Shown: positions 10,042-63,267 of the stretch, one piece after another
Numbering within the stretch: the stretch's first letter is position 1
Layout: each line of letters begins with the position of its first letter
From: Bryobacteraceae bacterium
GTDB lineage: Bacteria; Acidobacteriota; Terriglobia; Bryobacterales; Bryobacteraceae
Direction of reading: 5' to 3'
DNA: 64,000 bases
Assembly (NCBI GenBank): GCA_035602155.1
Contig: DATNMW010000096.1
Coordinates: 41,319 to 105,318, forward strand
Notes under the pieces: generated by a model
What the model was told of the DNA's origin: nothing
What the model saw: only the letters and a program-made list of their open reading frames with translations
Database searches by the model: none
Position numbers and translations under genes: made by a program

Positions 10042-10209
10042 ACTAGTGTACCAACCCGGCCATCACGCGCAGCGGACGAGGCGATCGGGCCTGAATCCCG
10101 GGTCCACGCGGAGCAGGCCGGTGAAGCTTTTCACCAGCAGGCCCGCGCCGATGGTCAGCTGCACGGAAACCGCCACTTCGCCGACGATCAACAGGTCGCG
10201 CGTTCGCCG

Positions 10210-10310: not shown

Positions 10311-10844
10311 GCCTTCGCGGCTCTGGCGCAACGGATCGATGCCAAACCGTATCCAGTAGGCCATCTGGCGGGTTGGCAGGTTCACGGCGCTGGGAATACC
10401 AAGCGGGAAACTGAAGCCGCGCGGCATCACTCCGACGACTACGTAGTCTTGCGTATGTTGCCCCGTCAGGCGAATCGCGCGGCCCACGATAGCCGGGTCG
10501 CCGGCGAAATGGCGCTGCCACAAATCGTAGTTCAGGACGATTACCTGGTCGTGGCCCGGTTGATCATCTGCGGGGAGGACGTAGCGGCCTAACAGCGGCG
10601 GCACGCCCAGGAGCGGCAATAGATTTGCTGAAACGCTCGCACCGTAAAGCGCATCCGGCTTGCCGGAGGCGGTCGGATTCAATAGCTCGCCGCGGTTCTG
10701 CGCGCCAGTCGGCCACATCGCGATAGGCTATCCAGTTCGCGGCTTCGCCTGTCTTGCGGTCGCGAAGCTGAATCTGCACCAACCGGCCGGGATTCGCAAA
10801 TGGCAACGGCGGCAGCAACAACCCGCGCACTACGCTGAAGATTG

Positions 10845-23341: not shown

Positions 23342-25650
23342 CGTTGAGCTACCTCTCTGGGCTTGGTATCCTTGCTCGCATCGCCCCGGCCCATTTGGAA
23401 CGGAGCGCTATGTACAATTTCAAAAATCAGCGATTGAAAATGATAGCCGGAAGCCGCCATATCGCGGTTGATGCCATCCACCGTGCGCCGGTCGTACGGC
23501 TGCAACCCGCGACCCAGCGCATAGGTCAGCATCTTTTCCGTCAGGCACCGGGAAAACTGCGGCAACCCCGCCATCAGCAGTGCGCGCATCTCATCCGGCG
23601 TCTTAAACGACTTGCCGCTGGGCAGCGTGCCGCTCGCATCCACCGGGAACTTGCCGTCCATGGTGCGCCATTTTCCAATAGCGTTGTAGTTCTCCAGGCC
23701 GAACCCCAGCGGGTCCATCTTGTTGTGGCATGAGGAGCACATGGGATCGGCGCGATGCTTCTCCATCTGCTGCCGCAAGGACATCAGCGTGCCCACCGCG
23801 CTTTCATCCAGCGCCGGCACGTCCGGAGGAGGCGGCGGAATCTCGGATCCCAGGATATTGTTCAGCACATACTTGCCGCGCAGCACCACGGATGTGCGCG
23901 TGGGGTAGCTCGAAACGGTCAACACGCTCGCCTGGCTCAGCAGCCCGCCGCGCTGCCCTGTGGTCAGCTCCACGCGACGGAAATCCGGCCCCGTCACGCC
24001 GGGGATGCCATAAAATTTGGCCAGCCGAGCGTTCAGGAAAGTATACTTGGCGTCGATGAAATCGGAAAGCGGACGATCCTCGCGCAGCACATATTCGAAG
24101 AACATGCGCGTCTCGCTCTTCATGGCGTCGCGCAATTCCGGCCCCCATTCGGGGAATTTGTCCGGATCCGGCTTCACCACATCGAGATTGCGGATCTCCA
24201 GCCACTGGCCGGCGAAATTGCTCGCCAGCGCGGCCGAGCGCTTGTCCGCCATCATGCGCTTCACCTGCCCGTCCAGCACCGCCGAATCGTGCAGTTTGCC
24301 GGATTCGGCGAGGCCCAGCAGCTCGTCGTCCGGCATCGAACTCCATAGGAAATAGCTCAGCCGCGATGCCATCTCCACGTCCGCAATCCGGTGTACGTCT
24401 TGCGCGTCGGTGGGGTTGGGATCGTGTTCGATGCGGAACAGGAACTGCGGCGTCACCAGCATGGCTTCGATCGCCAGTTGGATGCCTTGCTCCGTGGTCT
24501 CGCCGCGCGAACGGGCCAGAGCCACGAACTTCAGCAGCGAGGCAACTTCGGCGCGGGTCGCGGGCCGCCGGTAAGCGCGGTGCGCCAGCGCGGTGACGAT
24601 CTTCTCCACGCACGCCTGCCCGGACTTGGGATCGCAAATCAGAATCTTCTTGCGGCTCGCGCGCTCGACGTCCGTAGGGTATGGCCCCACGAACACCATC
24701 GAATTCAGATACTTGTTCTTCTTGTTGCTGTAAGCGTCCTTGTCGGACAGGGTCTTCACGAAGTCGTCGTCGATGAAGCCCGCGCGGAAGACATGGTCGC
24801 CGGAGGGCAGGTACATGCGCACCTCGGCTTCCGAATACGGCTCGAAATATACGAGCTTCGACGGCTTGGTCTCGACCGGCATCGTCTTCATCAACGTGCC
24901 GTCCATCCAGAACCCAAGCGTCACCGGCTTGGAGTCCGCGTTGCGTTCGCCGGGCATCCCGAAACGGATCACGTAATCGCCGTCCCATTCCACGCGATGC
25001 GAAGCTTCGATGGTGCTTCGGTCCAGGCGCTGGATAGTCTTGTCTTTCGAGTGGTATTGTACTTCGAGCGGCTTCTTCGGCAGCGGATCGGCCCCCATGG
25101 CGCGCGAGGCTATGACTTCGGCGGCGTCCACGTAATTCTCCATCAGCACCGGAGAAATGGTCAGTACGTCCGCGATGTTATCGAAACCGTAGCCGGAGTC
25201 GTCCGTGGGGAAGTTCTTATCGGCGCGGAAATCCACGGCCAGCAGATCGCGAACGGTGTTCGAATATTCGCTGCGGTTCAGGCGGCGCGCGGTGACGTGC
25301 CCAGGGTCCGGTTTGATATTGCGGTCGGCCTTCTCGAATTCACCCTCCACGTAGTGGATCAGCGCCTGCATCTGCGCCTCGGGCGGGCGCGGAATGCCTT
25401 TAGGCGGCATCTCGCCGCCGCGCAACTTGTCGAGAATCGTCTCCCAACCGTCGCGGTAATTCGCGATCGAATCCTGCGACATTAACAGCTTGACGTTCAG
25501 GCCCCCGGACGACAGCTTGTCGTTGTGGCATAGGGCGCAGGTCTTGGAAAGCACCGGCTTCACGGCCGAATCGAAATCGGCTGGCGGGGCATCCGCGGCG
25601 CGCAATGAACCGGCGAGGGCTAACGCAGTCGCAATGATCCGTAGTCTCAG
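23338..25650 (-). CDS. DUF1592/DUF1588/DUF1585-type protein with N-terminal cytochrome-c-like CxxCH (PSD-type) domain
   Basis: The track ORF is 23338..25605 (TTG start). It carries CALCHN and CSSCHNKMDPLGF motifs. The frame stays open upstream and encodes LRLRIIATALALAGSLRA, a signal peptide. A possible CTG start at 25650 follows GGAGG. Confidence 0.8.
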   Translation of the reverse strand: MRLRIIATALALAGSLRAADAPPADFDSAVKPVLSKTCALCHNDKLSSGGLNVKLLMSQDSIANYRDGWETILDKLRGGEMPPKGIPRPPEAQMQALIHYVEGEFEKADRNIKPDPGHVTARRLNRSEYSNTVRDLLAVDFRADKNFPTDDSGYGFDNIADVLTISPVLMENYVDAAEVIASRAMGADPLPKKPLEVQYHSKDKTIQRLDRSTIEASHRVEWDGDYVIRFGMPGERNADSKPVTLGFWMDGTLMKTMPVETKPSKLVYFEPYSEAEVRMYLPSGDHVFRAGFIDDDFVKTLSDKDAYSNKKNKYLNSMVFVGPYPTDVERASRKKILICDPKSGQACVEKIVTALAHRAYRRPATRAEVASLLKFVALARSRGETTEQGIQLAIEAMLVTPQFLFRIEHDPNPTDAQDVHRIADVEMASRLSYFLWSSMPDDELLGLAESGKLHDSAVLDGQVKRMMADKRSAALASNFAGQWLEIRNLDVVKPDPDKFPEWGPELRDAMKSETRMFFEYVLREDRPLSDFIDAKYTFLNARLAKFYGIPGVTGPDFRRVELTTGQRGGLLSQASVLTVSSYPTRTSVVLRGKYVLNNILGSEIPPPPPDVPALDESAVGTLMSLRQQMEKHRADPMCSSCHNKMDPLGFGLENYNAIGKWRTMDGKFPVDASGTLPSGKSFKTPDEMRALLMAGLPQFSRCLTEKMLTYALGRGLQPYDRRTVDGINRDMAASGYHFQSLIFEIVHSAPFQMGRGDASKDTKPREVAQR

Positions 25651-45915: not shown

Positions 45916-48351
45916 TTAGGATACCCGCAGCATCTGCGACGGATTAAGCTTCAGCACGCGCAGCGCAGGTATTACGCTGGCAACAGTAGCAACAAGCGCC
46001 AGAACGAAGGCAGCGGCAACAAATGTGCCGGCATCCGTCGTGGCGATGCCGAACACCAGGTGTTGCAACGCCTTCACCGACAGGCTCGCCAACAATCCAC
46101 CGATGGCAATGCCGATCCCCGAGAGACCAATGCCGGGAAGCGCGGCCTGGCGCATGATTTGCGCGATCGTCGCTCCCATTGCCAACCGGATGCCGAGCTC
46201 TCGTTGCCGCTCGGCCACGGAGTGTGCGATCAGGCCGTAGAGCCCGATGCTGGCCAGAACCAGCGCAAGCCCGGCAAGCGTCGATAGCAGGACCGCCTGG
46301 AACCGTTGCCGCCCCAGGGCGAGGGCGCGCACCTCATCCATGCTGCGGAAGCTGGCAATCGGCAATTGAGGATCGGCCTGCGCCACCGCCTTTTGGATCT
46401 GCGCGATGAGCCCGGCGCGGGATCCGGTAGCGCGCACAACCCAACTCGGAGAGAACCAGGTATGGACCATTTGCACGAAGCGGTCGTTGACCTGCATGGG
46501 AGAGACGAAAGCGGCCGGCTCCTCGGCAATCGGGCCGTTTCCGCCCCAACCGGCCTGCTGCGGAACGTCGCCGATCACGCCTACTATCTGGCGGGCGCTG
46601 CCGCCCACCGAAATGTAGCTGCCGAGCGCTTCGCGGTCTTGAAAATACTTCTTCGCAAACGCATCGTTGACCACCACAACCCGCTCCGTATTGGGGCCAT
46701 CGCTGTCCCGCAAAAGGCGCCCTCGGCGCAGCGGAATGCGGAGCGCCTGGAAATACCCGGGCGTGGCATAGGCGAGACTGGTCAGCATATGCTCCTTGCC
46801 GGCGTCTGGGCCGCTCATGAGCAGGAAATTGACGTTGAGGGGCCGCTCGTAGGGCAAGCCCAGCACCACGGCAGCCGCCTCCACGCTGCGCGATGCGCGT
46901 ATCTGGGAGAGGGTTTGCTCGAACAGCCGGTTCACTTGCTCCACGTGGCGGTAACTGGCATCCTGCAACGAGAACTGCGCGGTAATCACGTGGGTCGAAT
47001 CGAATCCGGGACGCAGGGAACTTTGTGCCACGAACGTCCGGAGCAATAGTCCAGCGCCGATCAGGAGCACGAAGCTGAGCGCCACTTCCAGAACCACGAG
47101 CGATTGCCGGAACCAGCGGTGCGAGGCGCCCACCACCCCGCGGCCGCCGGCCACGATCAGCGCGCGAAGATCCGTCCGGGTGGTTTGGATGGCGGGCGCC
47201 AAGCCGAACAGCAGACTGGTGAAGAGGGCCAAGCCCAACATGGCCAAGAGCACGCGGGCGTCCAGCGCGATTGCCTGCCGCAGATGCAGCGTCTCCTCGG
47301 CCCATTTCTTGGCCGCTTCGATCACCGCGTACCCCAGGGTGAGACCGGCCAGGCCGCCGCCTAGAGCCAGCAGAAAACTTTCGGCCATGAGCTGCCGGAT
47401 CACGGCAAAGCGCCCACTGCCGAGGGCCATGCGCACTGCAATATCGTGGGTGCGCCCGGCGGAGCGTACGATCATGAGAGTGGCAATATTAACGCATCCG
47501 ATCAACAAAACGGCGGCGACGGCGCCCCAAAGAACCAGCAGCGGCTGGCGCAGGTCGTTCGTCAGTCCCCGTTGCAAGGAGGCCAGCGTGAGGGCGGAAG
47601 AATAGTCGGCGGACTGGCTCGGCTGGAGCGCAATCGCTCCGGCCGCGGCCACTTGGGCGTTCGCTTGCGCCAGCGTATAGCCCGGCCGCAACCGGCCGAC
47701 GATCGCGTAGTTCTCTCCTTCGCCCTCGCCGGTACGCGCCGGCCGCAAAGGCGTCCATAGATCGGCCTGAACATCGGCCTGAAAAGCGGCAGGCATGACT
47801 CCGACGACTCCGTAGGTCTCCCCGCGCAACTGAATGGAGCGGCCTACCACCGACGGATCGCCATTGAACAAACGCTGCCAGAGGCGATAACTGAGGACCG
47901 CCACAGCGGGGCCTCCCGTGGTGTCTTCAGACGCCAGGAACTCCCGTCCGCGGAGCGGTGGCACGCCCAACACGCGAAAGAAACCGGATGAGACGCGCTG
48001 TTGGAGCACATAGCGCGCCTGGTTGCCGGTGCTAAGATTCACGCCGCTGGCGCTGTCCGAAAATGCGGCCGTGTCCAAAGCCGTCGCTTGATCGTGGACC
48101 AGGAACCACGTCGGGCCCGACTGCGCGTGCTGGTCACCCTCCGCGCCCTTGGCACGGTAATGGGTCACGATCTCCAACAGGCGTTCCGGCGCGGGGTAGG
48201 GCAGAGAGCGCAGCAGAACAGCATCCACGACGCTAAACAGGGCGGTATTGGCCGCGATGCAAAGTGCCAGCGTGAGTACGGCCGCCGCAGTGAAGAAAGG
48301 CGTTTTCCGCAGACTGCGCGCGCCAAGTTGTAAATCCCGCCACACCGGCAT
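45916..48351 (-). CDS. ADOP-family duplicated FtsX/MacB-type ABC transporter permease
   Basis: 811-aa ORF with the TM1 / MacB_PCD / FtsX block present twice. The N-terminus [39 protein letters not shown] is typical of the family. Confidence 0.9.
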
Positions 48352-48458: not shown

Positions 48459-51200
48459 TTATCCGGCCGAGCGGGCCAGTGTCCCTAGCTCCCCTGCTCT
48501 TATGGTACGCCTATCCGGCGCGCCGCGGCGGTCCCGCGGTATTCCATCCAAGGCGGCATCCAGCAGGAACGGAGCGGATGTGCCTGCAACGAGTCGATGC
48601 AGAAAGAGGGCGATCCCCGACGCTCCCGTGCCGAAGTCGCAACTGATGCGGACCAGTTCATGCCCGGGGAATGCGATACCCGTTGGGCGTTGTATCCCAA
48701 ACAATGCGATTCCGGACGCCACCTTTTCGGCTTTTTCCCGATAGGCCGCGCCATTCGCCTTGTCGAAGGACTCCATGTCCAGCAGGAAGTCGCCGAGTCC
48801 GGCCAAGCCGAAGAAGCGTCCAGGATAGATGGTATACTTTCGATCGCAATCCACCGCGATACGCCGCAGCACGGACGCATATTCATCGTCGGCCAGCACC
48901 TTCTGATAGCGGAGGAGCGCCGTTCCGACGCCCGCGCCACCCCAGCGCCAGTAGGGCACGCGCGTGCGGGACGCCTGCGAGATCTTCCAGGTGAGGCCGC
49001 CATCGGCTGTTTCTACTCCATTGCCGATGTCGAAGTCCATGCCTCCCTTGCCCACCTCCAGATAACGCTCCTGGCCGGTGAGCCCGTATAGATACAGGAG
49101 GAAGAGGGCGACGCCGCTGGCTCCATGGGCCAGTCCGTAGGCGGTATCGTCGTCCCACGGCCAGGAAAATCCCACGTCTTCCTCGTGCTTGGAGCGAATC
49201 AGGTAGTCGCCAGCCTCGGCGGCCTTCGCCAGGTGGAACTCGTCCTGCGTGTGAACGAACGCCTTCAATTGCGCCAACCCCCAACCAGCGGCGCCATTAT
49301 ACAGATCCGGCGAATCGAAGCGCAGCGGGTGATCGGCGCCGGCGCGCAGCAGTTCAAGCCCGCGTTCCTCGCGGCCGATCTCGAGCAGGGTCCAGCCAAT
49401 TCCCGATGTGCCGGCATACAGGCCGGGAGGGAAGGCTTCAGCGGTTATCTGCTTGCCGCAAATCCAATCCATAATCGCGGGCGAAACCGTACCCGTGATC
49501 TGTTTCATGCAATATGCCACGCCGCACGCCCCGTGCGCGAGGCTCAGCGGATTAGTGGCGTAGAGGGCCGGATCCGCGGGAAACAGGCGGTCTACGCGGT
49601 CGTAGCTCGCCGTCCCGGCCACATATTCCATGGCGCTTTCAGCCATTTTTCGCAACTCCCCGTAGACCGGAGCCTGGTGCGCCGGCGGCGCGGAGGCATG
49701 GCTGTCGCTTTCCAGAATCTCGATAACGCGCGCCGGGGTGATCCGGTCCGCCCGCTGTACGGCCATCAATCCTTGAATGCACCGAGGGATGCTCGCGGGC
49801 AAACCAAGATCGCGGCTCAGGGCTTCCAGAAAGCGTCCGCACGCCCCGGTATCCAGCGCCATCATCCCGTTGATCGGCATCAGCGCGGCGAGCATGAGCG
49901 CGCCGAGTCCGAAGTAGTCGTCCTCGCGCTCGGAATACGAGCTGGCCAAATCCGCCGAGGCGAAGCCGGGGGTGAACAGGGGAGTAGGGGGGTCGATGCC
50001 GATCTCATGAGCGGCTTCAAAATCGATGAACTTGACGTCCTCTCCGTCATTGATGACGATCAAGTTGTAATGGGAAATGTCGGTGAAGACGATACCGCGG
50101 CTGTGCAGAATTTCGAGGTTGCGTGCGATGCGCGAGAACACCCGGCAAAACCTATCCACGAATTCCTGGGCATCGGCGGCGGTCGGGGCGGTGCGCAATG
50201 CGAGGGAGTGCGCGCTGTTGTAGAATCGAAGCAACGCGCCGTCGATAAACTCTTCCACCAGATAGCAATGCTCCCAATCGCTGAAGAAATCGAGCGGCTG
50301 AGCGGCGATTCCGGTATCCGCCAAGCGCGTCAGAAGGCGGTGCTCCTTCTTGAGCAAGTCCACACCGTCGGCGCCGTTCGGATAGACATTCGAGAGCGGC
50401 CGCGCCTCTTTGATCACCACTTCCCGTCCAGTCTGGGTATCGGTGGCCAGATAGACGCCGCCACTGCTCGAGAACGCCAAGGCGGAGTTGACCACATAGC
50501 GTCCGTTTTTCAACGTGTTCTCGCCACTCTTTAACGTGTCTTCGCCGGCGCTATCGCCCGCGGCGCCGCCCACAGGATCCGGAGCCCACTCATGAGAGAC
50601 ACTGTAGGGCATACGCCGGTCCCGGATGGCCGTCCCGTCGGGCGCCTGGATGGTAAGTACGCGCTCGCCCCGCGAGTTCAGTGCATCGGTCCGCATGATC
50701 CCGCCGTACCGATAGTACAGGACCCGGCTGTCCTTGTAGCGCTTGTCCGAGAGAATGTACGGTCCGCGAAAGCCTACTAGAACGTTGTGCAACTCCTCAA
50801 TCAGCGAGAGAAAGGCCGGCGTGTCGGCGGGATAGATGGTGATAAACTTTCCGGCTCCGCTGCGCGGCCAACGCTTGGAGTTCTGCAGATAGACGATGGT
50901 CTTATCCAACGCGAACTTGAACGCCGTCTTGCGAGCCGTGAGGACCGGAATCACCGTGGCGAGTATGGCGGCGGCATTGGTAACCGTTGCGGAGATATGA
51001 ATCTTCCAACCCTGCCGCGGCGGGGCAATCGACGGCTCGGAGCAGTGAGACCAGATGCCGTTGCGCTCCATGCTCCAGCCTTCCGGCAAAAAACGCCGCG
51101 CGACTTCAAGCAGGCCGCCCGCATCGGGTTCGTAGCAGTCCATGGGTTCGTAGAAATCCCTGGAGCCGAATAAGTACTGAAAGACCTGAATATTAGACAT
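48459..51200 (-). CDS. lanKC: Class III lanthionine synthetase (LanKC: phospho-Ser/Thr lyase - kinase - zinc-less LanC-like cyclase)
   Basis: 913-aa ORF. Lyase-domain motifs WKIHISAT and GKFITIYP. Kinase motifs GGVYLATD...[25 protein letters not shown] and KFIDFEAA. The C-terminal LanC-like repeats are [38 protein letters not shown] and GLAGLGDF, without the WCxG / CHG zinc ligands. Confidence 0.9.
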
Positions 51201-51321
51201 TTTGAAATAATTCCGTTTTACCGTGCATCCTCACTGGTTTCCATGGGAGAGCGAACCCCAGAATCGCGCCTTTGCCTTTGTGGAAAGGCCCGCGCCCTTC
51301 ACTCGCATCCGCTGGAGCAGA

Positions 51322-51365
51322 CCCGGCGGCGGGAGCTCGCTGGTTTGCTCCCGTCTGCCTCCGGG
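51322..51365 (-). terminator. Conserved GC-rich hairpin 24 nt downstream of lanA1 (candidate attenuator or processing structure)
   Basis: Minus-strand cccgg-aggcagac-GGGAGC-aaaccagcga-GCTCCC-gccg-ccggg. It is homologous to the structure after lanA2, with a compensatory stem change. Confidence 0.5.
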
Positions 51366-51388
51366 CCGATTCCTCATCGCGGTTGTCG

Positions 51389-51553
51389 TCAGTAACCGGC
51401 CGCGATATAACCGCCCATGGCCGCGAAACAGGCCGCCGCGCTGTTGGTGGAGCACGCACAATTGTGGGCGCTCGACGTGCTGTTGCCTACCTCTGCCATT
51501 GGACCGCTGTTCTGGTCGTCCGGCAACATTTGAAGTGCTAATACTCGATTCAT
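51389..51553 (-). CDS. lanA1: Class III lanthipeptide precursor peptide 1 (54 aa)
   Basis: MNRVLALQMLPDDQNSGPMAEVGNSTSSAHNCACSTNSAAACFAAMGGYIAAGY. RBS GGAGAA lies 5 nt upstream of the ATG. Leader VLALQ motif. The core has two S-x2-S-x3-C motifs. Confidence 0.85.
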   Translation of the reverse strand: MNRVLALQMLPDDQNSGPMAEVGNSTSSAHNCACSTNSAAACFAAMGGYIAAGY

Positions 51554-51583
51554 AATCGTTCTCCTTAGTCTTATCTGGGAAGA

Positions 51584-51627
51584 CCCGCCGGCGGGGGCAC
51601 ATTGTGCCGCCCCCGTCTGCTTCCGGG
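51584..51627 (-). terminator. Conserved GC-rich hairpin 24 nt downstream of lanA2
   Basis: Minus-strand cccgg-aagcagac-GGGGGC-ggcacaatgt-GCCCCC-gccggcggg. Same position and architecture as the hairpin after lanA1. Confidence 0.5.
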
Positions 51628-51651
51628 CCAATTTGCGGCTAACGGCCGTCG

Positions 51652-51816
51652 TTAATAACCGGCGGCGATGAAGCCGCCCATGGCCGCAAAACATGCCGCG
51701 GCGCTGTTGGTGGAGCAAGCGCAATTGTGGTCGCTCGACGTGCTGTTGGCCAGCTCCGCCATTGGGCCGCTGTTCTGGTCGTCCGCCAACATCTGAAGTG
51801 CTAATACTCGATTCAT
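51652..51816 (-). CDS. lanA2: Class III lanthipeptide precursor peptide 2 (54 aa)
   Basis: MNRVLALQMLADDQNSGPMAELANSTSSDHNCACSTNSAAACFAAMGGFIAAGY. RBS GGAGAA. Differs from lanA1 at 5 of 54 residues. The tandem unit period is 263 nt. Confidence 0.85.
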   Translation of the reverse strand: MNRVLALQMLADDQNSGPMAELANSTSSDHNCACSTNSAAACFAAMGGFIAAGY

Positions 51817-51842
51817 AATAGTTCTCCTTGTTTCTTCTTTTA

Positions 51843-51900: not shown

Positions 51901-51936
51901 TTGTTGCTTAGCAGTTTCGGCTGTTTCGCGAATTAC
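51901..51936 (+). repeat. Direct repeat copy 1 of a ~36-nt motif in the divergent lan intergenic region
   Basis: ttgttgcttagcagtttcggctgtttCGcgaatTact. The first 26 nt are identical to copy 2. Both copies are preceded ~23-28 nt upstream by ttataaca. Confidence 0.7.
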
Positions 51937-52330: not shown

Positions 52331-52366
52331 CTTGTTGCTTAGCAGTTTCGGCTGTTTAACGAATAC
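52331..52366 (+). repeat. Direct repeat copy 2 of the ~36-nt motif, ~85-120 nt upstream of the ABC exporter gene
   Basis: ttgttgcttagcagtttcggctgtttAAcgaat-act. Candidate promoter or regulator-binding site. Confidence 0.7.
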
Positions 52367-52483: not shown

Positions 52484-54259
52484 ATGCCTGCGCACCGCTG
52501 GTTACTTAAAACTCTTCGGCCATTTCGCGCCAGTCAGTTGTTGATTACCTTCTCCCTGCTTTCGGCGGGACTGCTATCCTCGGTCGATCCTTTGATAATC
52601 AAATGGCTCATCGATCACGGCTTCCGCGGCGCTCGGGTGCGGTCTATTTTGATGGCGTTAGGTCTCTTTGTGCTGGCCTATTCAGTGCGGTTGACCTTAC
52701 TAATGATAGGTAACATGGCTGTCGCTGTAACCTGTCAGCGCGTGATGCTGCGTTTACGCCTGCAGCTTGCCACAAAGCTGACCCAGTGCGGGGCGGGGTA
52801 TTTCGACCGCCAACCGGTGGGCGATTTGGTTTACCGGCTGGAGGGCGACATCGAACAGGTCGGACATCTGGCCACGGACGTGCTCCCTTCGCTGCTGAGA
52901 GTGGCGGCCAGCGCCCTGTTAGTGGCCGGCATCATGGTGAGTATCGATCCGATGCTGGCTTGCGTGACACTTCCTTTCTTCCCGCTCTTTCTGGTGTTGC
53001 GCGCCCGCTTCCGGCCGAAGCTTGAGCGGGCGGCGGAAGCCACGCGAGACGTGGCCGGCCAGCGAAGCAGCTATTTGACCGAGTGGCTGGCAGGGGTCGT
53101 GCAGATACAGTTGCTGGGAGCGGAACGAACCTTCCTGCGCAAGCTCTTCGCGCTGTGCAGCAGTACGATCCGCGCCGCGGTAAGTCAGCGGAGAACGGAA
53201 CTGCTGTATGCCATCGGATCGATGGGCCTTATCGCGCTGGCCACAATCGCGGTTTTGGGCGCGGGTGCGGAGCGGGTTCTGACGCATGCGCTGACTCTGG
53301 GTGGGTATGTGGCGTTCTACACCTACCTGACCCGGCTGTTCGAGGCGCTGAGTGCCAGCGTAGAGACATATTGGCAGTTGAAGCGGGCTACCGGCAGCGT
53401 TCGCCGGCTGATGGAGCTGGAAGACGTGGACATCCCGATCGTGGACGTCAAGTCGGCTCCTTCGCTGCCCGCAGGCGAGGTCGGCGGCCTGGCGTGCACC
53501 GGAGTCGATTTCGGTTATCCGGCGGGACGAATCGTGATTCAGGGTGTATCCCTTCAGGTAAACCGCGGAGATCGCGTGGCCATAGTGGGCCGTAGCGGAA
53601 GCGGGAAGAGCACGCTGGCGAAGTTGCTGGTCCGGCTGTACGATGTAAGCGGAGGCGCGATTCTCCTCGACGGCGAGGACATCAGGGATCTGCGGCTGCG
53701 GAGTGTCCGCAGTTCGATCGCACTGGTGTCGCAGAACCCCACGTTGTTCGCCGGCACGCTGGCGGAGAATGCGCGGCTGGGAAGCCCGGACGCATCCCTC
53801 GAGGATATGAACCGGCTGGCAGTCCTGACGTGTTTCGATGAAGTCCTGCAAAGATTCCCGGACGGTTGGCGGCACGTGCTCGGGCCGGCCGGGGCCGGCT
53901 TGTCGGGCGGCGAGAAGAAGCGGCTGGCGCTGCTTCGGGGGCTCCTGCTGAATCGGGAGGTTCTGGTTCTGGACGAAGTGACCTCCGAGCTGGATCCGGC
54001 CGTCGAAAGGGTCCTGCTTTCCCACCTGGACGAATACGCCCATGACAAGGCCATCGTGCTGATCACACATCGCACCGCGGCGGCCCTTTGGGCCGACCGC
54101 ATCATCGCTCTCCAGGATGGGCGGGTGACGCGAGTGTGGCGACGTTCCGAGCTGGACGAGGACGACCCGCAACTCGAGCGGAAGCTTTGGGGCGAGGACC
54201 TGGCGATCCCCACGGAAGAGGCCTACCGGCCTGAAAGCGAACTGTGCTCAATTTTGTAA
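52484..54259 (+). CDS. ABC exporter, fused permease and ATPase (MdlB/MsbA-like), no peptidase domain
   Basis: The track ORF starts at 52451 (GTG); ATG at 52484. Six predicted TM helices, then Walker A GRSGSGKST, signature LSGGEKKRLAL and Walker B LVLDEVTSELD. Confidence 0.85.
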   Translation: MPAHRWLLKTLRPFRASQLLITFSLLSAGLLSSVDPLIIKWLIDHGFRGARVRSILMALGLFVLAYSVRLTLLMIGNMAVAVTCQRVMLRLRLQLATKLTQCGAGYFDRQPVGDLVYRLEGDIEQVGHLATDVLPSLLRVAASALLVAGIMVSIDPMLACVTLPFFPLFLVLRARFRPKLERAAEATRDVAGQRSSYLTEWLAGVVQIQLLGAERTFLRKLFALCSSTIRAAVSQRRTELLYAIGSMGLIALATIAVLGAGAERVLTHALTLGGYVAFYTYLTRLFEALSASVETYWQLKRATGSVRRLMELEDVDIPIVDVKSAPSLPAGEVGGLACTGVDFGYPAGRIVIQGVSLQVNRGDRVAIVGRSGSGKSTLAKLLVRLYDVSGGAILLDGEDIRDLRLRSVRSSIALVSQNPTLFAGTLAENARLGSPDASLEDMNRLAVLTCFDEVLQRFPDGWRHVLGPAGAGLSGGEKKRLALLRGLLLNREVLVLDEVTSELDPAVERVLLSHLDEYAHDKAIVLITHRTAAALWADRIIALQDGRVTRVWRRSELDEDDPQLERKLWGEDLAIPTEEAYRPESELCSIL

Positions 54260-54687
54260 CGGTCTTGCGCGTATTGCCCGGCGGCGCTTTGCTACTCAAG
54301 CATTCGGAGGATTCCCGGATCCAGAAAGTGCTGGCGCTGATCGCGGATGCGCCCGTACAGGAATGTGCTGGACTGGCGGGACAAGTACACCTCAGCACGA
54401 ACCGTCTGGTGCACTTATTCAGGCATGAGACCGGAGTGGGCTTAGGCTTGGTCCTGAGGGACGCCCGGCTGCGGTATTCGGCCCACCTCCTGTCTTCAGG
54501 GAAGGAGCCGGAAAAGGAGATCGCCTTTCTGTCCGGCTATCGGCACTTATCCAGCTTCGTCCGGGCCTTCACGCTACGGTACTTCGAGTCTCCCCGTTCC
54601 TACCGGCGCAATCCGCTTGTGCTGGTCATGTCCCCGCTCGGCGAGGGAGTCGTTGCGGAGGCCCTGGCGGTCGCCGCGCACGCCTAG
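54244..54687 (+). CDS. Short AraC-family HTH transcriptional regulator (DNA-binding domain only)
   Basis: IQKVLALIADAPVQECAGLAGQVHLSTNRLVHLFRHETGVG......IAFLSGYRHLSSFVRAFTLRYFESPRSYRR. It overlaps the ABC gene end by 16 nt. The start codon is uncertain. Confidence 0.7.
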   Translation: MLNFVTVLRVLPGGALLLKHSEDSRIQKVLALIADAPVQECAGLAGQVHLSTNRLVHLFRHETGVGLGLVLRDARLRYSAHLLSSGKEPEKEIAFLSGYRHLSSFVRAFTLRYFESPRSYRRNPLVLVMSPLGEGVVAEALAVAAHA

Positions 54688-54710: not shown

Positions 54711-56090
54711 ATGAGCGAACAAACCTGCTCTATTTACGGGGACGAAGCCGCCAACCATCCCGCGCCGGCCGGCAGGCTCCAAGTGCCCGTGGAGTATTTT
54801 CGGTTGCCCAACGGCCTGGCGGTTGCGCTCTCTCTCGACTGCAGCACTCCGGTGGCGGCTGTTACCGTCTATTATGGCGTCGGATTTCGCCGTGAGCCGC
54901 TGCATCGCGCCGGCTTTGCCCACCTTTTCGAGCACCTGATGTTTCAGGGGTCGCCCAGCCTCCCCAGATCGGAATTCATTCGACTTATCCACGAGTGCGG
55001 CGGCACCGTCAATGGGAGTACGCGCTTCGATTTCACCAGCTTCTATGAAGTGGTCCCGTCAAATGCCCTCCGTACGGTGTTGTGGGCCGAAGCAGACCGC
55101 ATGCGCGGCCTGGCTCTGACGCCGGAGAGCCTGGCCAACCAACAATCGGTCGTGTGCGCCGAAGTGGGCGCCAACATTCACAATCAGCCCTATGGCGGAT
55201 TTCCCTGGTTCGATGTACCTCAAACCGCGAACGTCAATCCGCACAATGCTCACAACTTTTACGGCGAGATTGAAGATATCACCGCCGCCACCCTGACGGA
55301 GGCGGAGGAATTCTTTCGGGAGTTTTACCGTCCCAACAACGCCGCCCTCGCGATCGTGGGCAACTTCGATCCGGCGGCGGTTCGGGAATGGATCGCCGGA
55401 TATTTCGGATCGATCCCGTCCGCGGCGGCGCCGGTTCCCTTCGACGTGAGCGAGCCGCGTCAACTGCGGGAGAGGTACGGGCGGAGGCTGGATCGTCTGG
55501 CGCCCAGTCCCGCCCTCGCCATCGCGTACCACATGCCGGACAGAAACACGGATGAGTACTTCGCGATGGGAGTGCTGGATCATCTTTTGCTTCAGGGAGG
55601 CGACAGCCTGTTTCAAAAGGAGCTGGTCAATCGCCGCGGGATGACCGATCTGGTTCGCGGCGGAATCAATATTCTGGGAACCATGTTCAACTACAACGGC
55701 CCCATGCTATGGACGGTCCACATGTTCCACGATCGCGACGTGCGCGCGGATGACATTCTGGAGGCCGTCGATGGGGTGGTGGCGGGCTTGACGGACGGGG
55801 AGGTTTGCCGGGAAACGCTTGATCGTGCTCTGGTCAAAATGCGTTCCACGCTCTACGACCAGATCGAATCCTCCCACGGCCTGGGTCTCGCCGATATGCT
55901 CGCGGCATTCGCGCTGTTCGACGGCTCTCCGGAACGGATCAATTCGTTGGACGCGCGCTTCCGGTCGGTCACGCCCGCATTGTTGCGCAGGACGGCTGCG
56001 GAGTGCCTTCGCAAAACCAATCGAACGGTCCTCGAAGTCGAGGCGCCGGCGGGTTCGGCTGTTAGACCAATGGGAAAGGAATGCAACTAA
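54711..56090 (+). CDS. M16-family (pitrilysin/insulinase-like) zinc peptidase, catalytic subunit
   Basis: 459-aa ORF with the inverted zinc motif HxxEH in GFAHLFEHLMFQGS and a downstream glutamate region (EFIRLIHECGGTVNGST). Confidence 0.85.
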   Translation: MSEQTCSIYGDEAANHPAPAGRLQVPVEYFRLPNGLAVALSLDCSTPVAAVTVYYGVGFRREPLHRAGFAHLFEHLMFQGSPSLPRSEFIRLIHECGGTVNGSTRFDFTSFYEVVPSNALRTVLWAEADRMRGLALTPESLANQQSVVCAEVGANIHNQPYGGFPWFDVPQTANVNPHNAHNFYGEIEDITAATLTEAEEFFREFYRPNNAALAIVGNFDPAAVREWIAGYFGSIPSAAAPVPFDVSEPRQLRERYGRRLDRLAPSPALAIAYHMPDRNTDEYFAMGVLDHLLLQGGDSLFQKELVNRRGMTDLVRGGINILGTMFNYNGPMLWTVHMFHDRDVRADDILEAVDGVVAGLTDGEVCRETLDRALVKMRSTLYDQIESSHGLGLADMLAAFALFDGSPERINSLDARFRSVTPALLRRTAAECLRKTNRTVLEVEAPAGSAVRPMGKECN

Positions 56091-57472
56091 TGAGCGCCCT
56101 CGCCTTCATACCCTCGCCGCCGGCCCGCCCGCCATTGCAGACCGTCTCTTGGGACCGGTTTGCGTTACCGGACCCGCAGTCGGTGCGCCTGTCCAACGGG
56201 CTCTCCGTCACGATGATTCAATGGGGTACGGTACCCAAGGTGCTTGTCAGCATGGTCCTGCGCGCGGGCCGGGCCGATGAGGGCAGGGAAAGACTGTGGC
56301 TTCGACGCCTGTTGGGCATGTGGATGATCGAAGGCACCCACAACCGCGGTGCGGATGCGGTGGCCGCCCAGGCGGCCACCATGGGTGGATCGATCGGACT
56401 GAGTTTCGGAGAAGATCTCATGGAGGTCTCCGCGGACGTGCTGACCGAGTGGGGGCCTGCGCTGGTCGAGTTGATGGCGGATGTCCTCCAGCAACCATTG
56501 TTTCCCGAGCGGGAGAGCGCCCGGTTGAAGCGCGCTCTGGTGCGCAAGCTCGAGATCCAGCAAAGCCAGGCTCGCGCCGTGGCGCATGAGGCGATTCGCC
56601 AGGTGCTCTATCCCGGCGGCTCCTACGGCTGTATTTTCCCGACCTCCGGCGCGCTGAATTCCTATGGCCGCACCGAGGTGATGGATTACTATGAATCGTG
56701 TTTCGTGGCGCGGCGCACGCACGTATGCGTGATTGGCCGCTTTGATGCCGCAAAGATGCTGGATGCGATTGAACGCAATCTCGGCGGATGGCGATCCGGT
56801 ACGGCACCCTTCGTGGAAAGGCCCGCGGAGTCGAAGGAGCCGGTTTGCCGGACCATCGACCGCCCAGGCTCAACCCAATCCACCGTGCTGATCGGTGTGC
56901 CGGTCGCGCCTCCAGGCAGTCCCGGCCGAGTCCCGCTGGAACTCGCGAATGCGATGCTCGGCGGCTCCTTCAGCTCTCGCATAACCTCGAATATCCGTGA
57001 AGACAAGGGCTACACCTACACGTGCGGTAGCAGCCTTCCCACCTGCTGCAGTACCTCTTTCTGGCTGGAAGTAGCCGATGTGGAACCGGGCGCCACGCGA
57101 GAGGCAATTCGGCTGATCCTGCATGAGGTGGACCGGTTCTGCCAGGAGCCTCCAACCGCGGACGAATTGATGCGCGCCAAAGCGTATACGTCCGGCGCGC
57201 TAGCGATCTCGATGTCGTCCCGGTCGGGACTGCTGAGCTGCCTGAAGTTCGACGATCTTTACCATCTTGGCTGGAGGTATCCGTCCACGTATCTGGCGCA
57301 GATCCGCGACGCGGATGTGCAGGACGTGTGCGCGGCTGCGGCACGCTATCTGAGGAGCGACAGGATGTCGACTGTCATCGTTGCGGATCTGAAGGAACTG
57401 GGGGAAGCGCCGTACATGCCGGCATCGCCACGATCGGTAGATGACGCGGGCCGTGCGGGCAATTTCACATAG
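56081..57472 (+). CDS. M16-family peptidase-like protein, non-catalytic subunit (HxxEH lost)
   Basis: 463-aa ORF. The equivalent position reads LRRLLGMWMIEGTHNRG, with no His-x-x-Glu-His. It overlaps the upstream M16 gene by 10 nt (ATGCAACTAATGA), suggesting translational coupling. Confidence 0.8.
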   Translation: MQLMSALAFIPSPPARPPLQTVSWDRFALPDPQSVRLSNGLSVTMIQWGTVPKVLVSMVLRAGRADEGRERLWLRRLLGMWMIEGTHNRGADAVAAQAATMGGSIGLSFGEDLMEVSADVLTEWGPALVELMADVLQQPLFPERESARLKRALVRKLEIQQSQARAVAHEAIRQVLYPGGSYGCIFPTSGALNSYGRTEVMDYYESCFVARRTHVCVIGRFDAAKMLDAIERNLGGWRSGTAPFVERPAESKEPVCRTIDRPGSTQSTVLIGVPVAPPGSPGRVPLELANAMLGGSFSSRITSNIREDKGYTYTCGSSLPTCCSTSFWLEVADVEPGATREAIRLILHEVDRFCQEPPTADELMRAKAYTSGALAISMSSRSGLLSCLKFDDLYHLGWRYPSTYLAQIRDADVQDVCAAAARYLRSDRMSTVIVADLKELGEAPYMPASPRSVDDAGRAGNFT

Positions 57473-57920: not shown

Positions 57921-58290
57921 TCAATTCAGGCTTCTGTCCTGGACCGTTCGCTTGCGATGGCCCTCGGCCAATGCGGCAGCCAAGCGATTCCAACCATGCA
58001 GCACTTGGGTCGGCGGCAGGCTTGGTTCAATCGCATTCTGAATCTGGTGCAGCGCCAAACCGAACTCGCGCCATTCACTGCGTTGAAGCGTATCCCGGGA
58101 GAACGTAACCCCAGGGGAAAGTTCCCGTCCGACTCGAACTGACTTCTGTGTCAGTAAGGCCACGAGCAGCTTTCCGTATAGCCAAGCCCGCGAACTCTGG
58201 TCGTCGTATTTGGGCAGGTGCCCGAGTTGTGCCAGGCTCTTGAACCGTTTGAAGGTCAACTCTATTTGCCATCTCACCCGATACCACTCT
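57921..58290 (-). mobile_element. C-terminal remnant of an IS4-family DDE transposase
   Basis: ...REWYRVRWQIELTFKRFKSLAQLGHL... is the Y-x2-R-x3-E-x6-K signature region. The 5-prime part of the gene is absent. The fragment abuts the VWA pseudogene at ~58290. Confidence 0.7.
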
Positions 58291-59275
58291 CTAAGACTGG
58301 CCCCGCGGCCGGTACCCCGGGCGCGAGCGCACCAAGTACTTCTTCCCCACATCGGTCACAATCTCGACGGGAATCTTGCGGAGGCCTTCGCTCGGATTGG
58401 GCTGCGGATAGTAAGTCACCGTGTAGGAGTTACCTAAATCCTCGCGGATGAATTCAAAAGCCTCCACCTGCTTCTGCCAGATCTTGGCCCAATAGGCTTT
58501 GCCGCCGGTGCGCGTGGCGATGTGCCGGAAGACGCCGCTCGAAATGGAGTAGTGGGTCAATTTGCTTTGTGGGGCAGGTTGGCAACCTGCGGGCCGATTG
58601 TCAATCGGCCCAGTTTGCGCCGATTTCCAATCGGCGCGCAGGAGCATCCTGTCTTCATGGCCCTGCGGGCCACCAAATGCGATCAAAACCCTTGGAGGGC
58701 GGCAGGATTGCCCAATGCCACTTAGTTTTCGAGCGCTGTGCGAAACCAAAACATTTTCAAGCACTTATGTCTCTCCGCAGAAATAGGGTGACGCTCGGAC
58801 ACTTTGGCGAACCCCACGCCAATCGCTTGCTTCAATCGGGGTAGCCGGGATCCGCGGGTGCGCAATGACTTGCACTCATACTCAAGAAATAAGTGGCATT
58901 GGGCAGGATTGCCCGCCCTCCAAGGGTGGCTTCGACGGTGCCCCGCAAACTGCAACTGACCCACTACCCGAAACGGGGTCCTTGTTGACCTCGTTAGTGG
59001 AGATCATGTAGATGGGAATGCCTTCGTCCTCGGCCACCGCGCGGACGTCGTCGGGCGCGACCATGCTGGCATTGTCCGGCCCGTTCGAGAAGACGATCGC
59101 CACCTTGCGGCCACGCACTTTGGCCGCGTCGCGCAGCGTCAGCAGCAAGGTGTTGTAGACCGCCGTATCGTCTCCTGCCACGGATTTGCGCAACCCGCCG
59201 ATGGCATCGCCGCGGTCGCGCGCGAGCCTGGCAGCCCGGGAAAGACTGCGGCTGAGGAAGTTGACCGCTGTTCCA
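58291..59275 (-). pseudogene. Diverged duplicate of the 3-prime half of the VWA gene (copy of ~62266..62830), interrupted by a 421-bp element
   Basis: Collinear by eye with the intact gene: ...AIVFSNGPDNASMVAPDDVRAVAEDEGIPIYMISTNEVNKDP... and ...FRHIATRTGGKAYWAKIWQKQVEAFEFIREDLGNSYTVTYYPQPNPSEGLRKIPVEIVTDVGKKYLVRSRPGYRPRG. There is no 5-prime half. Confidence 0.85.
58548..58968. mobile_element. MITE-like non-autonomous element (421 bp) with terminal inverted repeats and 8-bp target duplication
   Basis: The left end is aGTAGTGGGTCAATTTGC and the right end is GCAACTGACCCACTACc. The flanks are cgaaatgg / cgaaacgg. The uninterrupted paralog at 62514..62530 reads ...gctcgaaatgggatcc.... There is no ORF of transposase size. 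An internal 36-nt inverted pair lies at 58689..58724 and 58890..58925. Confidence 0.75.
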
Positions 59276-59482
59276 GTGTTGGACGCGGCGAACTGGCATT
59301 GACGCTAGGACCGGTGAACCGAGGTGTAAGGGCGGACGCTACCTTTATAGGCGGACTGCTACTGGCCGGCGGGTGCCTGGCGGTGGTCGGAGTCTAGAGC
59401 GAATGGATGCCAGTGCGCGCGGCGATGCGGGCCATCGGGAACTGCCGACGGCCTAAAAGGCGACAGAATGGGCGGGAGGGTT

Positions 59483-60172
59483 ATGCCAATCGTCCTAACC
59501 GAAATACCGGCAGCGGCTGTTCCCCACGTTCCGCCCCGAAAGCGATGGACTCGCGCCGAGTGCGCAACTCTGGAGGCGTCCGGTCTCCTGGATCAGGAAA
59601 GCCTGGAGCTTGTGGAAGGGGAGTTGATCGGCAAAACGGAGAAGAAACGCCCGCACGTGGACTCCTTCACCCTGCTACAGGAGTGGTTGGCGCAAGTCTT
59701 TGGATTTCGCTCAGTGAACGTAGAGGCGCCCATTGACGTGGCCCCTGAGGACAATCCTACCAACGAACCGGTGCCCGATCTTATCGTCCTACCGCAAGAG
59801 CGGCCGCGTTTCACATCCAACCCGAGGGCGCTGGATTTGCGGCTCGGAGTTGAGATAGCCGATACCAGCCTTAGCTTCGATCTCAAGGTTAAAGTCCCGC
59901 TTTACGCGAGGGCCGGGGTGCGCGAATATTGGGTCCTGGACGTGGCTGGCCACCGGTTGCTGGTGCACAGGAATCCGCAATCCGTAACGTATATGGACGT
60001 GGCCGCTTATAGCGCACGAGAGCGTGTCGCCGCTTGCTCCGCCGCGGGAACAGTTCCGCGTGGCGGATGCCTTCCAAGTCCTATAGCGGCGGTCGCCCGT
60101 ATCCGCCGTTGCCCCCGAAACGCGAACGCTAAACAGCACCGATCTGAAGCCAAATCCAATCGCGCGGCATGA
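59483..60172 (+). pseudogene. Uma2-family (DUF820) endonuclease, C-terminus altered by a 2-nt deletion
   Basis: MPIVLTEIPAAAVPHVPPRKRWTRAECATLEASGLLDQESLELVEGELI...PDLIVL...EIADTSLSFDLKVKVPLYARAGVREYWVLDV. After ~60014 the frame departs from copy 2 (agcgcacgag versus agcgagcacgag) and reads through to 60172. Confidence 0.7.
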
Positions 60173-60366: not shown

Positions 60367-60972
60367 ATGCCAATCGCCCTAACCGAAATACCGGCGCCGG
60401 TTGCTCCGCCGGATCCGCCTCGCAAGCGATGGACTCGCGCGGAGTGCGCCACTTTGGAGGCATCCGGTCTCCTGGATCAGGAGAGCCTGGAGCTTGTAGA
60501 AGGGGAATTGATCAGCAAGATGGGGAAGAAACGGCCTCACGTGAATTCATTCACCCGGCTGCAAGAGTGGCTGGTGCAAGTCTTCGGATGGGGCTTTGTG
60601 AATGCAGAGGCGCCCATTGATGTAGCCCCTGAGGACAACCCCACCAACGAGCCGGTACCCGACCTCATCGTGCTGCGGCAAGATGACTCGCATTTCACAT
60701 CGAACCCGCAACCCCAGGATCTGCGGCTCGTCGTGGAGATAGCCGATACCAGCCTTAGCTTCGATCTCAAGGTTAAGGCCGCGCTTTACGCGAGGGCCGG
60801 TGTGATCGAATATTGGGTCCTCGACGTAGCCGGCCGTCGGCTGCTGGTCCACCGGAATCCGCAATCGGGAAAGTATGCGGACGTGGCTGCTTATAGCGAG
60901 CACGAGAGCGTGTCGCCGCTGGCTGCGCCGGAGGAACAGTTCCGCGTGGCGGATGCCTTCCAAGTCCTTTAG
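60367..60972 (+). CDS. Uma2-family (DUF820) endonuclease
   Basis: 201-aa ORF with the PD-(D/E)xK-like core PDLIVL...VVEIADTSLSFDLKVKAALYARAGVIEYWVLDV. It is a tandem paralog of the upstream copy. Confidence 0.85.
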   Translation: MPIALTEIPAPVAPPDPPRKRWTRAECATLEASGLLDQESLELVEGELISKMGKKRPHVNSFTRLQEWLVQVFGWGFVNAEAPIDVAPEDNPTNEPVPDLIVLRQDDSHFTSNPQPQDLRLVVEIADTSLSFDLKVKAALYARAGVIEYWVLDVAGRRLLVHRNPQSGKYADVAAYSEHESVSPLAAPEEQFRVADAFQVL

Positions 60973-62265: not shown

Positions 62266-63267
62266 CTAGACCCCGCCCCGAGGCCGGTACCCGGGCCTGG
62301 ACCGCACGCGGTACTTCTTCCCCACATCGGTCACAATCTCGACCGCGATCTTGCGGAAGCCCTCGTTCGGATTGGGCTGCGGATAGTAAGTCACCGTATA
62401 AGAATTGCCTAAATCCTCGCGGATGGATTCAAAAGCCTCCACCTGCTTCTGCCAGGTCTTGGCCCAATAAGCCTTGCCGCCGGTGCGCGTGGCGATGCGC
62501 CGGAAGACGCCGCTCGAAATGGGATCCTTGTTGACCTCGTTGGTGGAGATCACGTAGATGGGAATGCCTTCGTCCTCGGCCACCGCGCGCACATCGTCGG
62601 GCGCCACCATGCTGGCGTTGTCCGGCCCGTTGGAGAAGACGATTACCACCTTGCGGCCGGGCACTTTGGCCGCATCGCGCAACGTCAGCAACAAGGCGTT
62701 GTAGAGCGCCGTATCGTCTCCCGCTACCGACTTGCGCAGCCCGCCGATGGCGTCGCCGCGGTCGCGCGTCAGGGTAGCGGCGCGGGAGAGATTGCGGCTG
62801 AAGGTGTAGACCGCCACGGAATCCGCGCGGTCCAGGCCGCGCACGAAATCGGCGATGGCGTCTTCGGCGTACACGAAACCGCGGTACATGAAGTTGCTGG
62901 TGTCGAACAGCACGAAGACGTTGGTGCCCACGAAGGCGTCGCTGTGGAGGTCGATGCCCGGGTTGCCGGGCGCCTCGGCGGGCTCGCCGGCCACCAGCGG
63001 ACGCGTGCTGCCATCCTCCAACACCTGCACGGGAGGCTTGGTGCCCTCCGCGAAGGTGGCCATCTTTTGCAGGACGGTGTCTTCGTAGATTTTGAAATCC
63101 GTATTCTTCAGGCCGTTGATATAGCGGTTATGGCTGTCGGTGACGGTGAAGCTGAGCACTACCATATCCACTTTCACGCGGAATACCGGGCGCTGCGCAT
63201 CCTGCGCCTTCAGCAAAGCCGTGCCCGCTGCCGCTCCTAGAAAACCCCGACGGGTTATGAGACGCAT
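62266..63267 (-). CDS. VWA-domain protein (TIGR03436-like, acidobacterial VWFA-related) with Tat-like signal
   Basis: 333-aa ORF. MRLITRRGFLGAAAGTALL. MIDAS-like VFVLFDTSNFM. ...VVIVFSNGPDNAS.... Confidence 0.85.
   Translation of the reverse strand: MRLITRRGFLGAAAGTALLKAQDAQRPVFRVKVDMVVLSFTVTDSHNRYINGLKNTDFKIYEDTVLQKMATFAEGTKPPVQVLEDGSTRPLVAGEPAEAPGNPGIDLHSDAFVGTNVFVLFDTSNFMYRGFVYAEDAIADFVRGLDRADSVAVYTFSRNLSRAATLTRDRGDAIGGLRKSVAGDDTALYNALLLTLRDAAKVPGRKVVIVFSNGPDNASMVAPDDVRAVAEDEGIPIYVISTNEVNKDPISSGVFRRIATRTGGKAYWAKTWQKQVEAFESIREDLGNSYTVTYYPQPNPNEGFRKIAVEIVTDVGKKYRVRSRPGYRPRGGV

Follow-up and report, generated by a model that had tools for sequence, protein, structure and literature searches.

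A split M16B protease pair as candidate cytoplasmic leader peptidase of an acidobacterial class III lanthipeptide cluster

We analysed a 64,000-nucleotide (nt) stretch of a Bryobacteraceae genome assembly (Acidobacteriota; GCA_035602155.1, contig DATNMW010000096.1, positions 41,319 to 105,318), referred to below as the window. Two adjacent plus-strand genes, here called A (54711–56090, 459 residues, the catalytic subunit) and B (56090–57472, 460 residues, the non-catalytic subunit), encode M16-family peptidase subunits at the edge of a class III lanthipeptide cluster. The reading that we favour, with moderate confidence, is that A and B form a cytoplasmic heterodimeric zinc metalloprotease of the M16B type, which is dedicated to this cluster and removes the leader of its LanA precursors. 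We infer the dimer, its substrate, the cleavage site and the compartment from comparisons of sequences. An earlier, sequence-only reading of the same DNA had proposed a dedicated class III leader peptidase here. Signal-peptide loss, a long branch and the co-occurrence of precursor type and protease favour the cluster-dedicated role, and leader removal itself is plausible.

Active-site residues of the two subunits

Both A and B match Peptidase_M16 (PF00675) and Peptidase_M16_C (PF05193) above the Pfam cut-offs, the N-domain match of B being weak at 29 bits. The HxxEH motif of A is HLFEH at residues 71–75 (nt 54921–54935), which holds the zinc ligands H71 and H75 together with E74. The third zinc ligand, E151 in the segment VVCAEV (nt 55161–55163), is the same residue in all 119 relatives and aligns with the glutamate of the EE pair in PDB entries 5euf and 3amj_C. 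Q144, in place of a glutamate, lies upstream of this zinc ligand as a feature that A shares with its family. A direct BLASTP comparison of A with B gives 25% identity over 67 residues, too weak to place the degenerate motif of B, and we therefore relied on a joint alignment of 240 sequences (120 A-type and 120 B-type). There, H71, E74 and H75 of A stand opposite R73, G76 and M77 of B, and RLLGM at residues 73–77 of B (460-residue numbering; nt 56306–56320) takes the place of HxxEH. The sequence-only reading had named MWMIEG as the degenerate counterpart; the region was right, but the register was off by four residues, MWMIEG beginning at the position of the second histidine. HxxEH is found nowhere in B and in none of its 119 nearest homologs, so its loss is an ancient family trait and not specific to this cluster.

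The C-terminal domain of B carries an Arg/Tyr pair, R303 (nt 56996–56998) and Y310 (nt 57017–57019), in IREDKGYTY (R-x6-Y). Both residues are invariant in 119 of 119 relatives and align with the corresponding segment of 3amj_B. The joint alignment places V306 and D313 of A at these columns, so the pair is absent there. Since the zinc site is present only in A and the Arg/Tyr pair only in B, a complete chamber needs both subunits. Judged by sequence, A and B would be of the M16B heterodimer type, in which each subunit is incomplete alone. The closest PDB matches agree with this division: A matches 5euf first (1.4e-29) and 3amj_C, the 'active subunit', second (2.8e-29), and the top match of B is 3amj_B, the 'inactive subunit' (5.3e-26). 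Entry 3amj comprises the two chains of the Sph2681/Sph2682 heterodimer of Sphingomonas sp. A1, which shows the same split of zinc site and Arg/Tyr pair between subunits but has only about 30% identity to the window pair. The active/inactive pairing proposed earlier is borne out by HLFEH in A, by the absence of HxxEH from B and by these matches to the 3amj chains.

The reading frames of A and B are full length, free of frameshifts and coding-like in GC content at third codon positions (GC3). Two start codons can be considered for B. ATG 56081 yields 463 residues and the 10-nt overlap with A that had been claimed, and ATG 56090 yields a TAATG junction with a 1-nt overlap. The latter sits 9 nt after the Shine–Dalgarno-like GGGAAAGGA and is used by public gene calls on four contigs. 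We regard ATG 56090 as the likelier start, and with it the longer overlap falls away; either start implies translational coupling of A and B.

Origin of the pair and its association with the cluster

The best non-self BLASTP matches of A, which number in the thousands and come mostly from Terriglobales, show 56–60% identity, and those of B show 40–45%. In a collection of 5.8 billion proteins, identity to A exceeds 60%, and identity to B 45%, only in sequences from the same population. When aligned, A is 54–59% identical to its 119 best matches, which are 62–99.8% identical among themselves (median 74%), and B is 39–43% identical to its 119 best matches, for which the median among themselves is 59%. 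These nearest relatives, secreted Terriglobales/Acidobacteriota pairs named 'pitrilysin family protein' and 'zinc protease' (54–60% identity to A and 39–45% to B), share with the window pair the A-then-B order, Q144 and the lack of HxxEH in B. They differ in bearing signal peptides on both subunits, in lying in varied non-lanthipeptide contexts and in resembling one another far more closely than they resemble the window pair. Three homologs with 59–60% identity, on four contigs (L005–L008), likewise stand in A-then-B order, in unrelated genomic surroundings that lack lanKC.

An N-terminal hydrophobic signal region is found in 115 of 119 A-homologs and in all 119 B-homologs. Neither A nor B of the window has one, and no upstream start codon exists in either frame; being signal-less, both are predicted to be cytoplasmic. 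Every family-invariant catalytic or binding residue is kept (H71, E74, H75 and E151; R303 and Y310). On these sequence features, A and B look like divergent, long-branch, signal-less paralogs of the widespread secreted Terriglobales M16B pair. A copy of such a pair would have lost both signal peptides, been placed behind the exporter and the AraC-type regulator of the cluster and then diverged fast.

The cluster consists of two divergent transcription units, lanA1–lanA2–lanKC–permease on the minus strand and ABC exporter–AraC regulator–A–B on the plus strand, and B forms its right end. Class III membership is indicated by the lyase–kinase–cyclase architecture of LanKC and by LanA precursors with a VLALQ motif and two SxxSxxxC motifs. 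The ABC exporter gene (52484–54259) and the regulator gene (54244–54687) overlap by 16 nt, a gap of 23 nt separates the latter from A, and A and B overlap; the earlier statement that the M16 pair shares an operon with exporter and regulator is upheld by this spacing. The GC3 of the pair is 0.73–0.75, like that of the cluster genes, and that of the flanking genes is 0.78–0.83. No other peptidase, including those of the M1, S8 and S9 families, was found in the window by a Pfam scan of open reading frames (ORFs) of at least 230 residues and selected shorter ones, about ten ORFs of 128–189 residues outside the cluster being excluded.

We compared the cluster with 160 LanKC loci, 80 from genomes and 80 from metagenomes, with flanks of up to 10 kb. 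The nearest homologs of the window LanKC, with 43–51% identity, come from Acidobacteriota, Gemmatimonadota, Lysobacteraceae, Oxalobacteraceae and others. Of the 160 loci, 17 have an M16 protease in their flanks, on the lanKC strand in 14 cases (binomial p = 0.006). The order lanKC–ABC–M16 is found head to tail in four of them (L044, L047, L106 and L148). The association becomes much sharper when the precursor is considered. The core type of the window, CxCS[ST]xSxxxCF, recurs in six other loci (L037, L044, L047, L095, L136 and L148), each of which has an M16 protease; among the remaining 154 loci, 11 do (Fisher p = 5.8e-7; p = 5.5e-5 after near-duplicates were collapsed). Correlation of the protease with a class III cluster or precursor group was thus found both as operon sharing in the window and as co-occurrence in six of six loci.

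In these six loci the protease is a signal-peptide-bearing fused protein of about 930 residues. Their LanA cores hardly differ from that of the window, the core of LanA1, SSDHNCACSTNSAAACF, being identical to those of LanAs in L095 and L148, and their LanKCs are just 43–45% identical. The gene order in these loci (L044, L047, L148, L095/L136 and L037, from Duganella, Pseudoduganella, Undibacterium and metagenome contigs) is lanA–lanA–lanKC–ABC, followed by the fused M16 gene.

Cluster-linked M16 proteases as a whole belong to several unrelated lineages and occur as split pairs or as fused proteins of about 910–950 residues. We considered a common origin of the window pair and the other cluster-linked enzymes and rejected it, the latter being 25–36% identical to A (41% for one fragment). 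For ten of 12 cluster-linked enzymes, each of the three housekeeping representatives gives a higher score than A does, and the remaining two are ambiguous (27–28% identical). Because the cluster-linked proteases are of unrelated lineages, M16 enzymes appear to have been recruited repeatedly, the window pair being a separate event. A fused 908-residue M16 protease beside the LanKC cluster of L118 (15106–17832) apparently lacks a signal peptide (N-terminus MSKLNQITSHNRTSVTDGVPSIPLETYTLPNGL); by virtue of this enzyme, the window is not alone in having a signal-less cluster-linked M16. Another precursor group, with the leader ...DPLDDEMCWSTCSSS, is also often accompanied by an M16 protease, namely in L049, L057, L157 and L118, the leader of L118 being a divergent ...ESDELCWST(Q/T)SD variant. 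In the same group, L063 has no M16 within 10 kb and the contig of L058 is too short to judge.

The identity of the core over 17 residues between the Acidobacterium and the beta-proteobacteria-like (Oxalobacteraceae-type) L095 and L148, at 43–45% LanKC identity, allows a wider proposal, which we put forward as a tentative possibility and would not expect to hold in full. A conserved class III family of Gram-negative bacteria, with the core SS(D/G/N)HNCACST(N/A)SAAACF, may depend obligately on M16 proteases, which would have been recruited independently at least twice, with a switch in the compartment of leader removal. If so, a fused periplasmic form and a split signal-less form would serve different lineages, and the compartment would have changed while the product did not.

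Proposed function, precedents and alternatives

In the maturation pathway that we propose, LanKC would first dehydrate and cyclise the 54-residue LanA1 and LanA2. A and B, forming a clam-shell heterodimer of the kind seen in Sph2681/Sph2682 and mitochondrial processing peptidase, would then enclose the LanKC-modified LanA and cut off its leader of about 23 residues near the acidic MAE(L/V), with the cleavage site probably a few residues before STSS. A would provide H71, E74, H75 and E151, and B would provide the substrate-holding R303 and Y310. N-terminal trimming may follow the cut, as with PttP1/PttP2. Finally, the ABC exporter, probably together with the ADOP/MacB-type permease (ADOP, Acidobacterial duplicated orphan permease), would export the product.

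M16B heteromers that remove class III leaders in vitro are known from Firmicutes since 2022, namely PttP1/PttP2, encoded in the cluster, and Bcn-gP1/gP2, encoded outside it (PMC8960859). Both subunits of this type are needed for full activity, only LanKC-modified precursor is accepted, and endopeptidase action at Q-A-(A/V)-(D/E) is followed by aminopeptidase action (PMC8960859). The M16B pair ThurP3/P4 removes the class III leader of andalusicin (2023; PMC10604976). A 2023 review counts M16 proteases among the enzymes that remove class III and class IV leaders; AplP (M1), FlaP (S9 prolyl oligopeptidase) and AmyP (S8) are the remaining class III enzymes known (PMC10885120). M16 genes have also been annotated in a class III-c cluster (M16B; 2026; PMC13504147) and, as the pair RosP1/RosP2, in a class V lanthipeptide cluster (PMC12291118). 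Xue et al. (2022) noted that what bacterial M16B peptidases do biologically was, in general, unclear. Given the precedents of 2022 and 2023 (PMC8960859, PMC10604976), the assumption of just a prolyl oligopeptidase and an M1 enzyme for class III leader removal does not hold. Since M16B heterodimers are already established for this task in Firmicutes, the pair is also not the unusual solution that the sequence-only reading took it for.

The window pair resembles PttP1/PttP2, Bcn-gP1/gP2 and ThurP3/P4 in having two subunits of about 430–460 residues with HxxEH in one and the Arg/Tyr pair in the other. It further resembles PttP1/PttP2 in being encoded in a class III cluster with lanKC, several lanA genes and a transporter, and in its predicted job. 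However, it belongs to another M16B lineage, outside the gene families YfmH/YfmF: the window proteins score 25.9 bits with NF047421 (cut-off 250) and 51.2 bits with NF047422 (cut-off 285). We take these NCBIfam YfmF/YfmH models, from the gene names, to represent the YmfF/YmfH family of PttP (Prot_819/Prot_176), and our comparisons with PttP and YmfF/YmfH rest on the models and the published papers. The gene order differs as well. P1 in ptt and bcn is the Arg/Tyr subunit and P2 has HxxEH, whereas the active subunit comes first in the window. The host here is a Gram-negative Acidobacterium, the leader lacks Q-A-(A/V)-(D/E), the pair would derive from a secreted ancestor via signal-peptide loss, and leader removal is a prediction. 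PqqF/PqqG (pyrroloquinoline quinone), AlbE/AlbF (subtilosin) and RosP1/RosP2 resemble the window pair as M16 proteins of clusters for ribosomally synthesised and post-translationally modified peptides, often active/inactive and thought to process the precursor; they serve other classes of such peptides, and we regard them as non-orthologous. The PqqF model TIGR02110 scores 37.9 bits (cut-off 320), which places the pair outside that family. AplP, FlaP and AmyP act at the same pathway step with folds unrelated to that of the pair.

By analogy, it is plausible that the pair acts like the Firmicutes M16B leader peptidases but from a separate lineage. The comparison suggests that the Firmicutes M16B solution has been reached again from another M16B lineage, through duplication of a secreted pair, loss of the signal peptides and rapid divergence. 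What is newer here is that a different M16B lineage would have been recruited independently, that the host is Gram-negative and that neither subunit has kept its signal peptide; understanding of the pathway itself is unchanged. The literature library that we searched held no papers on M16 proteases in class III clusters of Acidobacteria or other Gram-negative bacteria, and no characterised lanthipeptide product from Acidobacteriota. Missing leader peptidases hamper the production of class III lanthipeptides from genome-mined clusters, and for one Gram-negative (Acidobacteriota) lanthipeptide the cluster itself now offers a specific candidate. The co-occurrence of precursor type and protease holds in Gram-negative clusters too and offers a simple pairing rule for metagenomic clusters.

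Several observations weigh against a dedicated cytoplasmic leader peptidase. In about 90% of the related LanKC clusters, no M16 gene lies within 10 kb, so an M16 protease is not a general requirement of LanKC clusters. The same precursor type is paired in the Oxalobacteraceae-like loci with the signal-bearing fused M16, and processing there would be periplasmic; because those enzymes carry signal peptides, the cytoplasmic location predicted here is not conserved in the system. The LanA leaders, which read ...NSGPMAE(L/V)..., contain an Ala-Glu dipeptide but not Q-A-(A/V)-(D/E), the site cut by PttP1/PttP2. At 38 of the 220 sites with at least 95% conservation in its family, A has another residue, and relaxed constraint, not a new specificity, may be the cause. 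The pair stands at the cluster edge beside a transposase remnant and duplicated gene fragments, and rearrangement may explain some of the juxtaposition. Lastly, all public copies of the cluster have the same nucleotide sequence (contig L002 differs at 7 nt of the 6PGD-like gene that flanks it), which leaves no substitutions by which selection on the pair could be gauged.

Operon sharing and co-occurrence show a link to the cluster, not a cleavage site, and a cluster-linked pair could have another job: degrading the leader or surplus precursor, conferring immunity through cytoplasmic destruction of the mature peptide, or trimming the C-terminal tail. The chamber-forming proteases of family M16 degrade short unstructured peptides with little selectivity, the presequence-degrading M16 enzymes being a parallel, and the precursors bear an unusual C-terminal extension past the last Cys, the hydrophobic tail FAAMGGFIAAGY. 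We nevertheless consider such a job unlikely. The scanned ORFs of the window contain no other candidate for the leader peptidase, export and immunity functions are already on offer from the ADOP/MacB permease and the ABC exporter, and the characterised cluster-linked M16B pairs all remove leaders, by endopeptidase and then aminopeptidase action (PMC8960859).

The pair could also have no role in maturation, either as a housekeeping pair brought beside the cluster by chance or by transposon-mediated rearrangement, or as a decaying duplicate. The former agrees with the thousands of homologs and the many unrelated Terriglobales contexts in which such pairs lie, with the transposase remnant and the duplicated VWA-gene fragment directly downstream, and with the LanKC loci, most of which have no M16. 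We think it quite improbable, as A and B are signal-less and long-branched, unlike their approximately 119 nearest homologs, the genes are co-oriented and almost contiguous with the regulator and exporter of the cluster, their GC3 fits the cluster genes and not the flanking genes, and the window precursor type goes with M16 in all six other loci. A decaying duplicate would owe its long branches and lost signal peptides to relaxed selection on a redundant, non-functional copy, which accords with the 38 substitutions in A, with the mere ~41% identity of B to its own family and with the weak 29-bit match of B. This appears very improbable for a pair with two intact, coding-like frames, in which every family-invariant catalytic or substrate-binding residue is kept and the two genes remain tightly coupled, their junction having even been rebuilt as TAATG once the signal-peptide region was gone. 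Both explanations fit poorly because the essential residues are kept, the TAATG junction was re-made and both signal peptides were lost, and the cytoplasmic leader peptidase remains the reading that we prefer.

Other features of the cluster and the window

The synthetase gene lanKC (48459–51200, minus strand) encodes 913 residues with RamC_N, Pkinase and LANC_like domains; the class III model NF038151 scores 749.8 bits (cut-off 575), and the class IV synthetase model stays under its own cut-off. The precursor genes lanA2 (51389–51553, minus strand; MNRVLALQMLPDDQNSGPMAEVGNSTSSAHNCACSTNSAAACFAAMGGYIAAGY), which public gene calls include on four contigs, and lanA1 (51652–51816, minus strand; MNRVLALQMLADDQNSGPMAELANSTSSDHNCACSTNSAAACFAAMGGFIAAGY) encode 54 residues each and are tandem copies from a 263-nt duplication (51319–51829), with coding parts 88% identical. 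VLALQ in both leaders is of the N-terminal (I/V)LxLQ type, and each precursor has its own two SxxSxxxC motifs. A GC-rich inverted-repeat segment, AGACCCGCCGGCGGG..., is conserved behind each lanA copy; between lanA and lanKC it could be an attenuator or terminator.

The fused permease and ATPase of the ABC exporter comprises 591 residues from ATG 52484, the start used by public gene calls, or 602 from GTG 52451. Pfam detects only ABC_membrane and ABC_tran in it, with no C39 or other peptidase domain. Homologs of the exporter come after lanKC in many loci. The regulator is a small AraC/XylS-type protein of 147 residues that consists of a DNA-binding domain only (HTH_18, 3.8e-15), and its homologs with 45–50% identity adjoin lanA/lanKC in L009, L018 and L073. 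The divergent lanA/ABC intergenic region contains two copies of a 33-nt direct repeat, TTGTTGCTTAGCAGTTTCGGCTGTTT(CG/AA)CGAAT, 94% identical and in the same plus-strand orientation. Copy 1 (51901–51933) lies ~85–117 nt upstream of lanA1 and copy 2 (52332–52364) ~87–150 nt upstream of the ABC start. The repeat is a candidate operator of the AraC-type regulator. A promoter and terminator consensus scan of 45.5–58 kb gave fewer matches than shuffled sequence and no operon boundaries.

At the left edge of the cluster, the gene at 45916–48351 (minus strand) encodes a duplicated ADOP/MacB-type permease of 811 residues with MacB_PCD and FtsX twice (TIGR03434, 743 bits; cut-off 622), a probable export or immunity component. 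A MacB/ADOP-like permease is found in 91 of the 160 LanKC loci and lies within 1.5 kb of lanKC in 54, including those of Lysobacter and Gemmatimonadota, which suggests a role in lanthipeptide export or immunity for some members of the 'orphan' ADOP family. A fragment of a further ADOP-family gene is suggested at 10075–10586 (minus strand) by tblastn (52% over 58 residues and 43% over 42 residues).

The right border of the cluster is marked by a rearrangement scar at 57921–59268. Downstream of B, a DDE transposase remnant (57921–58352) is followed by a degraded duplicate of a VWA gene, about 550 nt long and 88–90% identical to 62275–62814 of the VWA-domain gene at 62266–63267. Tandem Uma2-family paralogs (59468–60172 and 60367–60972; 84% identical) lie between the duplicate and this gene. 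The window comes from a soil-metagenome contig, and its sequence is also present on ENA and Logan contigs of up to 137 kb. Elsewhere, at 22001–25605 (minus strand), a DUF1552 (HXXSHH) gene stands beside a multi-domain PSD/PSCyt gene (DUF1592, 1588, 1587, 1585 and 1595), a pair typical of Planctomycetes and Acidobacteria and unrelated to the M16 finding.

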